In this document: positions 18,001 to 18,889 of the stretch, piece by piece | Position numbering within the stretch: the stretch's first letter is position 1 | How the letters are laid out: each line of letters starts with the position of its first letter | IMG/VR virus record: IMGVR_UViG_2695420613_000009 | DNA: 18,889 nucleotides | Strand: one strand, 5' to 3' | Origin: a virus | Taxonomy: Duplodnaviria > Heunggongvirae > Uroviricota > Caudoviricetes | Program-made: the position numbers

Positions 18001-18889
18001 GGCGATGGTGAAATCGGTAGAGCGGGATATGAAAATTGCCGTGGATCGGTTTAACCGCGAGTACAACAAAAAAGTGGGAGTGGATTAACAGAAATGGCCC
18101 CGTACGGAAGTGCGGGGCTGATTAAGAAATAAACACTCATTGACCTGTAATAACCGGAGCTATTAACATATAGTCAGAAGAGCATTTCATGTGATACAGA
18201 GAGCCGATTTATGTTTAATGAAGAAAAAGTTGCGCAAATGGCAGCGTATTTGCTGAAAAAGCATGGCGGATCTATGCGTTTCATTAAGCTGAAGCAGCAA
18301 CGGTAATGGCGAATAGCATTTATGAGCAAAATAATCTTGATATGTTATTAGGCGATCTGATGTAACCGGGATGATGTTCACCCCTTATCGCCGGGGAACA
18401 ATACCGGCAATCAGAATTGCGGATGGAACTATTCAGGCCCACGATGATATCGATGAGGAGTTTTTTCAGCCAGTATTGGATGGCTTTCTTATATCCAAAT
18501 ATACGCCATTTGACATCCTCCACGCCCTGAAGGACGGGGTTTTACAGCGCACCGGATAAGATTCGGTGTTTTGTTGAAAAATACTGTGATAACAAACAGA
18601 AAACCCGTCAGTAAGACGGGCTTAGCAAGCTGGGACGGTTACTTTAATAATTTCAGTGCCTTTACATCCACTTCAACACTGCTCAGGTCTTTATCAATTT
18701 CACCCTCAATTCTTACTTTGTCTTTCGGAGAAACATTCTGACCGGCCCATATGCTGTCATCGATATCCGTGACAATTGTCCCGCTATTGTCACGAAACTC
18801 ATAACGTTCATCACCCACTTTTTTAACGATGCTCCCTTCAAGGATAACCCATGCATCATCCTTCAGTTCTTTTGCCTGCGCTACTGTTG

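Follow-up and report, generated by a model that had tools for sequence, protein, structure and literature searches.

Results

The stretch of about 550 bp between the giant ORF and the convergent YgiW-family gene is very probably a decayed two-gene PanA-PanT cassette that lies inside the Stx2 phage 933W. Three lesions set the 933W copy apart from the intact operon of related prophages: a 406-bp frameshifting deletion taking out the whole Panacea domain of the first gene (panA), a 225-bp in-frame deletion taking out the beta-barrel core of the putative toxin encoded by the second gene (the partner), and a 46-bp single-hairpin IS609 derivative placed 3' of a TTAT near the toxin 3' end.

The window, that is the whole stretch of DNA analysed, has 18,889 nucleotides. 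Its last 990 bases (17900-18889) are 100% identical to positions 57257-58246 of the Stx2 phage 933W (window coordinates are 933W coordinates minus 39357). They also match many other short-tailed Stx phages, and at least 80% of them was matched in about 108 of the 5,426 complete E. coli genomes. The entire segment, YgiW gene included, is found at 100% identity in Min27, the PA series and VT2-Sakai as well as in 933W. On these matches we place the window in the right arm of 933W. The giant ORF ends at 18088 and the reverse-strand reading of the YgiW-family gene begins at 18639, in agreement with the spacer of about 550 bp given in the original prediction. The short frames described there (18211-18306, 18306-18365 and 18371-18559) are all present. 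Coordinates are collected in Table 1.

Table 1. Features of the window from the giant ORF to the YgiW-family gene (window coordinates).
Feature	Position	Strand	Description	Basis
Giant ORF	9668..18088	+	2806 aa, 933W L0134, LPD5/LPD38 domain protein	933W record
Hairpin after the giant ORF	18097..18118	+	GC-rich, 9-bp stem, no T-run	z = -4.87; 0/200 shuffles fold as well
Candidate sigma-70 promoter of the cassette	18140..18169	+	TTGACC-18-TAACAT, weak	Scan
panA 5' remnant	18211..18290	+	Codons 1-27, identical to the N-terminus of intact 186-aa PanA	
31-codon ORF	18211..18306	+	27 true PanA codons, 4 out-of-frame codons (KQQR) and stop	
Junction of the 406-bp panA deletion	18290..18291	+	2 bp (GA) of microhomology	DNA alignment
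panA 3' remnant	18291..18365	+	EAATVMANSIYEQNNLDMLLGDLM and stop; contains the 19-codon frame	
Annotated ORF L0135 (NP_049533)	18371..18559	+	62 aa	Two partner remnants and 16 element codons
Partner 5' remnant	18371..18409	+	Codons 1-13, MMFTPYRRGTIPA, 92% identical to P0166 residues 1-13	
Junction of the 225-bp in-frame deletion	18409..18410	+	Between CTGGC(A/G) direct repeats	L021 alignment
Partner 3' remnant, first part	18410..18509	+	IRIADGTIQAHDDIDEEFFQPVLDGFLISKYTP...	
46-bp mini-IS609	18510..18555	-	Minus strand CCGGTGCGCTGTAAAACCCCGTCCTTCAGGGCGTGGAGGATGTCAA	IS609 left end/right end hybrid
Partner 3' remnant, second part	18556..18591	+	...TPYKIRCFVEKYC once the 46 bp are removed	
TTAT target	18556..18559	-	Immediately 5' of the element left end; on the plus strand, the TAA stop of L0135	
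Terminator-like hairpin	18601..18623	.	Between the cassette and the convergent ygiW-family gene	
YgiW/YdeI-family OB-fold gene	18639..18889	-	933W L0136, cut by the window end	933W record

The operon is intact in related prophages

Contigs encoding P0166, the 133-aa E. coli member of the partner family that is nearly identical to L0135 over the retained parts, provided six loci (L021-L026), which come from metagenomes and draft E. coli genomes; one strain of the L021 type is GCA_018131805.1. Their gene order is the giant LPD5/LPD38 ORF, panA (186 aa, PF13274), the partner gene (133 aa) and the convergent ibrB/ibrA genes. All six loci are intact and lack the 46-bp element. The retained 933W segments are 94-98% identical to this intact operon and the fragments are colinear with it, which bears out the pseudogenised accessory gene that had been proposed for the stretch. 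The proposal that all of the fragments stem from one decayed gene held only in part: the 31- and 19-codon frames do belong together, as panA, but the 62-aa frame comes from a second gene, the partner toxin, and has an IS609-derived C-terminus. Homology, synteny, the exact breakpoints and the empty site of the element were observed directly in these comparisons.

The partner gene (about 135 aa) directly follows intact panA in phages, with a 4-nt overlap in YeP1 and Lys8385Vzw and a start 2-4 nt after the panA stop in Vibrio and Klebsiella phages. The gap is 5 nt both in L021 and in 933W, the partner remnant keeping the place of the downstream gene. Homologues that span the fragments turned up by tblastn for PanA, and family profiles matched the frames for both PanA and the partner.

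The first gene is a panA remnant

In tblastn searches, the 31-aa peptide retrieved identical copies in Stx phages, longer ORFs in the Shigella phages POCJ13 and 75/02 Stx and in Escherichia phage PhiR5_2, and the N-termini of full-length proteins from Klebsiella, Yersinia, Pseudomonas and E. coli phages. The conserved N-terminus of PanA is M(I)F.E.KVAQMAAY.L. The Klebsiella relative (187 aa) is a SocA_Panacea protein (PF13274, Pfam E=5.8e-27, domain residues 27-139). Against a profile built from 105 full-length PanA proteins, positions 1-27 of the stub matched with E=6e-12, and the tail of the 19-codon frame (MANSIYEQNNLDMLLGDLM, 18306-18365) was colinear at profile positions 160-181 (weak match). 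The C-terminus of the PhiR5_2 copy, ...EAATVMANSIYAQNNLDILLSDLR, also matches the 19-codon frame. The resemblance of the 31-aa N-terminus to Panacea/DUF4065 proteins, which the original prediction had offered as a weak one, was upheld by the profile match and by the intact orthologue at the same position. By this homology, the stub can be identified as the N-terminus of a DUF4065/Panacea (SocA-like) antitoxin gene.

Pfam found no PF13274 in the raw 933W fragments; the stub gave only a chance-level match to WH_PARP12 and the other two fragments gave nothing. The intact syntenic orthologues do carry PF13274 above the gathering score. Descent from panA is seen in the DNA: behind the shared giant ORF, what 933W has retained and its flanks show 96-98% identity to the intact L021 operon.

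The deletion in panA measures 406 bp against L021 (positions 2515-2920) and 397 bp against PhiR5_2, the difference being a 9-bp tandem duplication in L021 that is single in PhiR5_2. Both lengths are 1 modulo 3, and so the stub reads out of frame into KQQR and a stop, while the true C-terminus is left as a separate frame. The gene is thus shifted by +1 and has lost the entire Panacea domain (residues 28-162 approximately). In the intact panA of L021-L026 the duplicated unit AAGCTGATG occurs twice and encodes KLMKLM (L021 2506-2523). PhiR5_2 (L007 3875-3886) and POCJ13 have a single copy of the 9-bp unit, and the longer Klebsiella and Yersinia PanA homologues read KLIKLLYL or KLMKLLYL at this site.

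ORF L0135 contains the two ends of the partner gene

Among 5.8 billion proteins, the search with L0135 returned only itself or near-identical copies and one 37-aa fragment. The intact partner came to light only by a detour, through the protein family encoded directly after intact PanA genes. These proteins have about 135 aa, and L0135 aligns with their two ends but with nothing in between: its MMFTPYRRGTI matches the partner consensus MxxFxPYRKGTV, and its DGTIQAHDDIDEEFFQPVLDGFLIS matches the consensus SGEIxVHDDMPEATFNRILDGFDIS. Against a profile built from 54 full-length partner proteins, L0135 matched at positions 90-126 (E=9e-8 in the six-frame search, 1.4e-9 with the ORF alone), and its N-terminal piece was colinear at positions 4-13 (weak match).

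Removing the 46-bp element and keeping TTAT restored ...SKYTPYKIRCFVEKYC, which is 95.6% identical to P0166 residues 88-132, and raised the profile score of L0135 from 27.1 to 38.0 bits; the restored partner ORF would stop at 18612-18614. A removal of 50 bp, with TTAT counted in the element, was rejected, as it led to an immediate stop whereas the 46-bp removal restored the conserved tail. L0135 thus finishes with 16 codons (FDILHALKDGVLQRTG) and a stop that come from the inserted element and the TTAT target, in a frame that differs from that of the ancestral tail.

The 225-bp deletion corresponds to L021 3040-3264 (75 codons) and removes the beta-barrel core. The 133-aa partner belongs to no Pfam family, and structure comparison predicted a MazF/Kid fold. 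The partner-family profile had no significant match among the PDB sequences, and neither the partner nor PanA obtained a useful match from NCBIfam or PADLOC. Residues 14-88 of P0166, deleted in 933W, hold all five core strands of the predicted model, so no toxin fold should be able to form in 933W, and L0135 contains no MazF/Kid-type beta-barrel. There is no Shine-Dalgarno before the 62-aa frame in 933W, just as the original prediction had remarked, and the change from GAGG in L021 to GATG in 933W explains its absence. Read against the intact operon, L0135 is a chimera of a gutted toxin gene and an IS-derived C-terminus, and very probably pseudogene debris.

Homology to L021 stops at about 18591, at the last codon of the partner, and the 933W-specific ygiW/hokW module runs from there. 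At this mosaic junction, a later or separate exchange would have joined the cassette to the ygiW/hokW module.

The 46-bp element derives from IS609

A sensitive DNA search with window 18519-18559 (41 bp) matched a short sequence in about 4,860-4,900 of the 5,426 E. coli genomes. In K-12-type genomes this sequence is the terminus adjoining the tnpA 3' end of a tnpA-insQ(tnpB) element between ydcL and ydcO. We take this element of E. coli K-12 to be IS609. A REP-like repeat was considered for the 41 bp and rejected, since they are the left end of IS609. The left end of the K-12 copy reads TTAT followed by CCGGTGCGCCGTAAAACCCCATCCTTCAGGGCGGGG..., and its right end finishes with ...CCACGTCCTTCAGGGCGTGGAGGATGTCAA.

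The 46-bp element is the 5' segment of the IS609 left end joined to the 3' tail of the right end, via a 14-nt core (CGTCCTTCAGGGCG) that is common to both hairpins. Both outer termini match IS609 exactly. On the minus strand the element is directly preceded by TTAT, no duplication of the target accompanies it, and the six intact loci without the 46 bp read ...ATACACCGT^ATAAAATTCGG... (empty site ...ACACCGT^ATAA..., ^ marking the insertion point). Insertion 3' of TTAT without duplication is the signature of the IS200/IS605 family. TTAT also stands at the left end of three independent full-length IS609 copies and of the solo copies in HK97 and Stx1 phages. Unlike IS609, the element has neither tnpA nor tnpB, nor any other ORF, and a single hybrid hairpin (left-end 5' arm, right-end 3' arm) replaces the separate left-end and right-end hairpins; this hairpin is not the predicted minimum-energy fold. 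Compared with palindrome-associated transposable elements (PATEs, non-autonomous IS609 relatives), which keep both ends, the 46-bp element is much shorter.

At window 18549-18569 the insertion has given rise to a terminator-like structure, a 9-bp hairpin built from the element terminus and the neighbouring target DNA, with TTTGTTG behind it. The ancestral target (CACCGT/ATAA) and the element end (CACCGG/ATAA) are alike at 9 of 10 positions, which seems to make the insertion boundaries ambiguous in automatic alignments.

Hybrid-type matches number 779 in 615 of the 5,426 E. coli genomes, and plasmids account for 220 of these matches. A scan for the exact pattern found none in 185,579 species-representative genomes. 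The unrelated sites are L0135, the stx1 leader and HK97/HK106, together with a divergent plasmid variant. In the stx1 leader, the hybrid and its TTAT (L012 1501-1550, Stx1a prophage of E. coli O145 RM12275) lie between a Fur-box-like sequence (TGAATATGATTATCATTTTCATTAC) and the stxA1 Shine-Dalgarno (AAGGAG), and the hybrid has the same sense as stxA1. This copy was present in all of the 346 stx1-positive complete E. coli genomes, stx1a and stx1c alike, and no presence/absence polymorphism was seen among them. In HK97 (20865-20914; L020 1201-1250) and HK106, the hybrid lies between tfa and the sib/attP region. The tfa-module homology of many P2-like phages ends exactly at the right-end boundary of the hybrid, so the element marks a mosaic junction in HK97. 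In plasmid p1540-1 and its relatives of about 60 kb (L015 1492-1545), a variant element lies upstream of a hok-family toxin gene, and its left part is replaced by the complement of the inner arm of the left end (GCGCCTTATATCCCC).

As to the origin of the 46 bp, the odds lean slightly towards a scar of a full-length IS609 that lost its interior by slippage or recombination at the shared 14-nt core. The core is contained in both IS609 ends and the hybrid breakpoint falls inside it, and the copy in the stx1 leader is fixed. A single hairpin does not offer the two-end geometry of synapsis by the TnpA of IS608 (IS200/IS605). Against a scar stand the recurrence of the same hybrid at several unrelated sites, at so many places in 615 genomes, and the fact that a non-systematic look saw no site with full-length IS609 in one strain and the hybrid in another. 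In another reading the hybrid would itself be mobile, a minimal IS200/IS605 substrate moved in trans by IS609 TnpA that spread among Stx phages, HK97-like phages and plasmids, the stx1-leader copy then affecting toxin expression or mRNA structure. We consider such mobility unlikely. The scar is slightly preferred over a self-moving mini-element because a single hairpin should not support two-end synapsis.

The cassette has decayed in several ways in sister phages

Some part of the cassette is carried by 176 of the 5,426 complete E. coli genomes, and both cassette genes together by none of the 5,426. In the PhiR5_2 type, panA directly follows the same giant ORF and is nearly full length, a nonsense codon 9 being its sole defect in the copies read. 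As a result, annotators start the gene at Met10 (174 aa). The partner of this type is replaced after codon 6 by the ibrAB module, which leaves a 15-codon ORF. PhiR5_2 (L007 3825-3827) and two human-gut metagenome contigs (L017, L018) share the CAA-to-TAA change at panA codon 9.

In the POCJ13 / O104:H4 type, panA breaks off after about 40 codons. E. coli O103:H2 strain 129 (L003 3128-3222) shares the junction of the 406-bp deletion with 933W and has lost a further 1 bp in the A-run of codons 4-6; at window-equivalent 18310/11 it passes into an unrelated module, which lies on the other strand. As the junction is shared and the sequences diverge only beyond it, the panA deletion predates that module exchange. 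By these sequences, the slot after the giant ORF is a mosaic hot spot that has repeatedly lost the cassette. The 933W-type sequence itself hardly varies (at least 99% identity in about 100 genomes), and relaxed selection is therefore not demonstrable from its substitutions.

We infer that the remnants in 933W have no function now, because the domains and the Shine-Dalgarno are gone, the C-terminus is chimeric, L0135 is an orphan and the cassette has decayed repeatedly in sister phages. Functional small proteins would be the opposite reading, with L0135 (62 aa), the 31-aa peptide or both still at work, for instance a truncated toxin C-terminus acting as a decoy or regulator. The L0135 frame is indeed open and has a CDS annotation, about 100 genomes and many phage records contain it in identical form, and PHROG families exist for both L0135 and the 31-codon ORF. 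However, these families merely gather near-identical copies, the only kind found among the 5.8 billion proteins. The change of GAGG to GATG, the 16 final codons read from the IS and the missing beta-barrel core further argue against a functional L0135, as do the other ways in which sister phages lose the cassette. Such a function is improbable, and we retain the reading of the remnants as a relic. If the ancestral toxin was active, its inactivation would have preceded or accompanied the loss of the antitoxin.

Flanking signals and the prophage boundary

The hairpin at 18097-18118 directly follows the stop of the giant ORF and is kept in all relatives. For the late transcript it may serve as a terminator or help to stabilise the RNA. 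In L021 the same hairpin has compensating differences (GCCCCGTACTGAAGTGCGGGGC). In the promoter scan, sites were no more numerous than expected by chance. A search of 17900-18889 against Rfam at a permissive threshold gave nothing credible.

The original prediction regarded the giant ORF as the last phage gene and placed the prophage-host junction, with the attachment-site end, in the spacer. In 933W the giant ORF is followed by L0136, then by mokW/hokW/sokW, two hypothetical or ea22-like genes, a dksA-like gene and the antirepressor gene (ant). The 933W record puts the attR core at 61664-61670 (window coordinate 22307 approximately, outside the window), about 3.1 kb beyond the end of the 18089-18638 stretch. 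Since L0136 and further phage genes follow and attR comes about 3.1 kb on, the stretch lies inside the prophage and is not a prophage-host junction. The YgiW-family gene is the phage gene L0136, not a host gene, and the DNA past 18638 is phage DNA. In related prophages, too, the intact operon follows the giant ORF at this position. The search for an att core within 18089-18638 and the tRNA search over the window both found none; here the original prediction was right. Were the stretch a junction, YgiW would belong to the host and the decayed accessory gene would mark the att end. This reading would suit the convergent orientation, the spacer without an intact gene and the existence of YgiW homologues in the E. 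coli chromosome, but it is next to impossible given the YgiW gene and segment at 100% identity in Stx phages, the position of attR and the lack of a tRNA in the window.

Discussion

The cassette of 933W is an ordinary relic of a known kind of system. PanA-PanT systems were defined by Kurata et al. (2022, PNAS; PMC8832971). Their T6 toxin cluster, assigned to the EndoA/PemK/MazF RNases by HHpred, has members in Proteus, Pluralibacter, Pantoea and Photorhabdus, and the antitoxin gene lies upstream with a spacing of -1 or -4, that is, with an overlap (Dataset S1; PMC8832971). The T6 pair of P. moraviensis has been validated: the toxin (PanT, WP_083201923.1) is toxic and inhibits translation, and it is neutralised by PanA, with which it forms a complex (PMC8832971). 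The P. moraviensis PanA starts with MIFSEQKVAQ (PMC8832971), the same N-terminal motif as in the PanA relatives described here. Our PanA match in Pluralibacter gergoviae is WP_048253753.1 and the T6 toxin listed for the species is WP_048253752.1, accession numbers that are consistent with adjacent genes.

The intact operon most likely represents a PanA-PanT system of type II whose toxin has a MazF fold, and the E. coli cassette is most likely linked to T6, as judged from the shared taxa, architecture and fold and from the neighbouring accession number. By analogy with the P. moraviensis pair, the ancestral toxin was probably an inhibitor of translation, and binding by the antitoxin probably neutralised it. 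Like the T6 systems, the intact E. coli orthologue has the antitoxin first, a SocA_Panacea domain, a predicted MazF/Kid partner and a phage or prophage location. Unlike them, the 933W copy has neither the Panacea domain nor the toxin core and carries an IS fragment, as a relic would. With SocA-SocB of Caulobacter (type VI), the cassette shares the Panacea family (PF13274) of the antitoxin. Unlike SocA, however, a full-length PanA relative scores 14 bits on the NCBIfam SocA equivalog, which has a cutoff of 190, and the partner, with its predicted MazF-like fold, is not SocB. The antitoxin probably acts by direct binding and not by ClpXP adaptor-mediated degradation (PMC8832971).

For annotation, L0135 (NP_049533) and the unannotated 31-codon ORF of 933W-type Stx2 phages would be better treated as pseudogene debris than as genes. 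For work on IS200/IS605 transposition or stx1 regulation, the IS609 hybrid offers a modest side lead, above all through the copy that is fixed in the stx1 leader. The slot between the giant LPD38 gene and the ygiW/hokW or ibrAB modules would once have held a PanA-PanT cassette (MazF fold). Its independent decay in several Stx phage lineages, with none intact in complete E. coli genomes, hints that the cassette may be costly or dispensable in lysogens.
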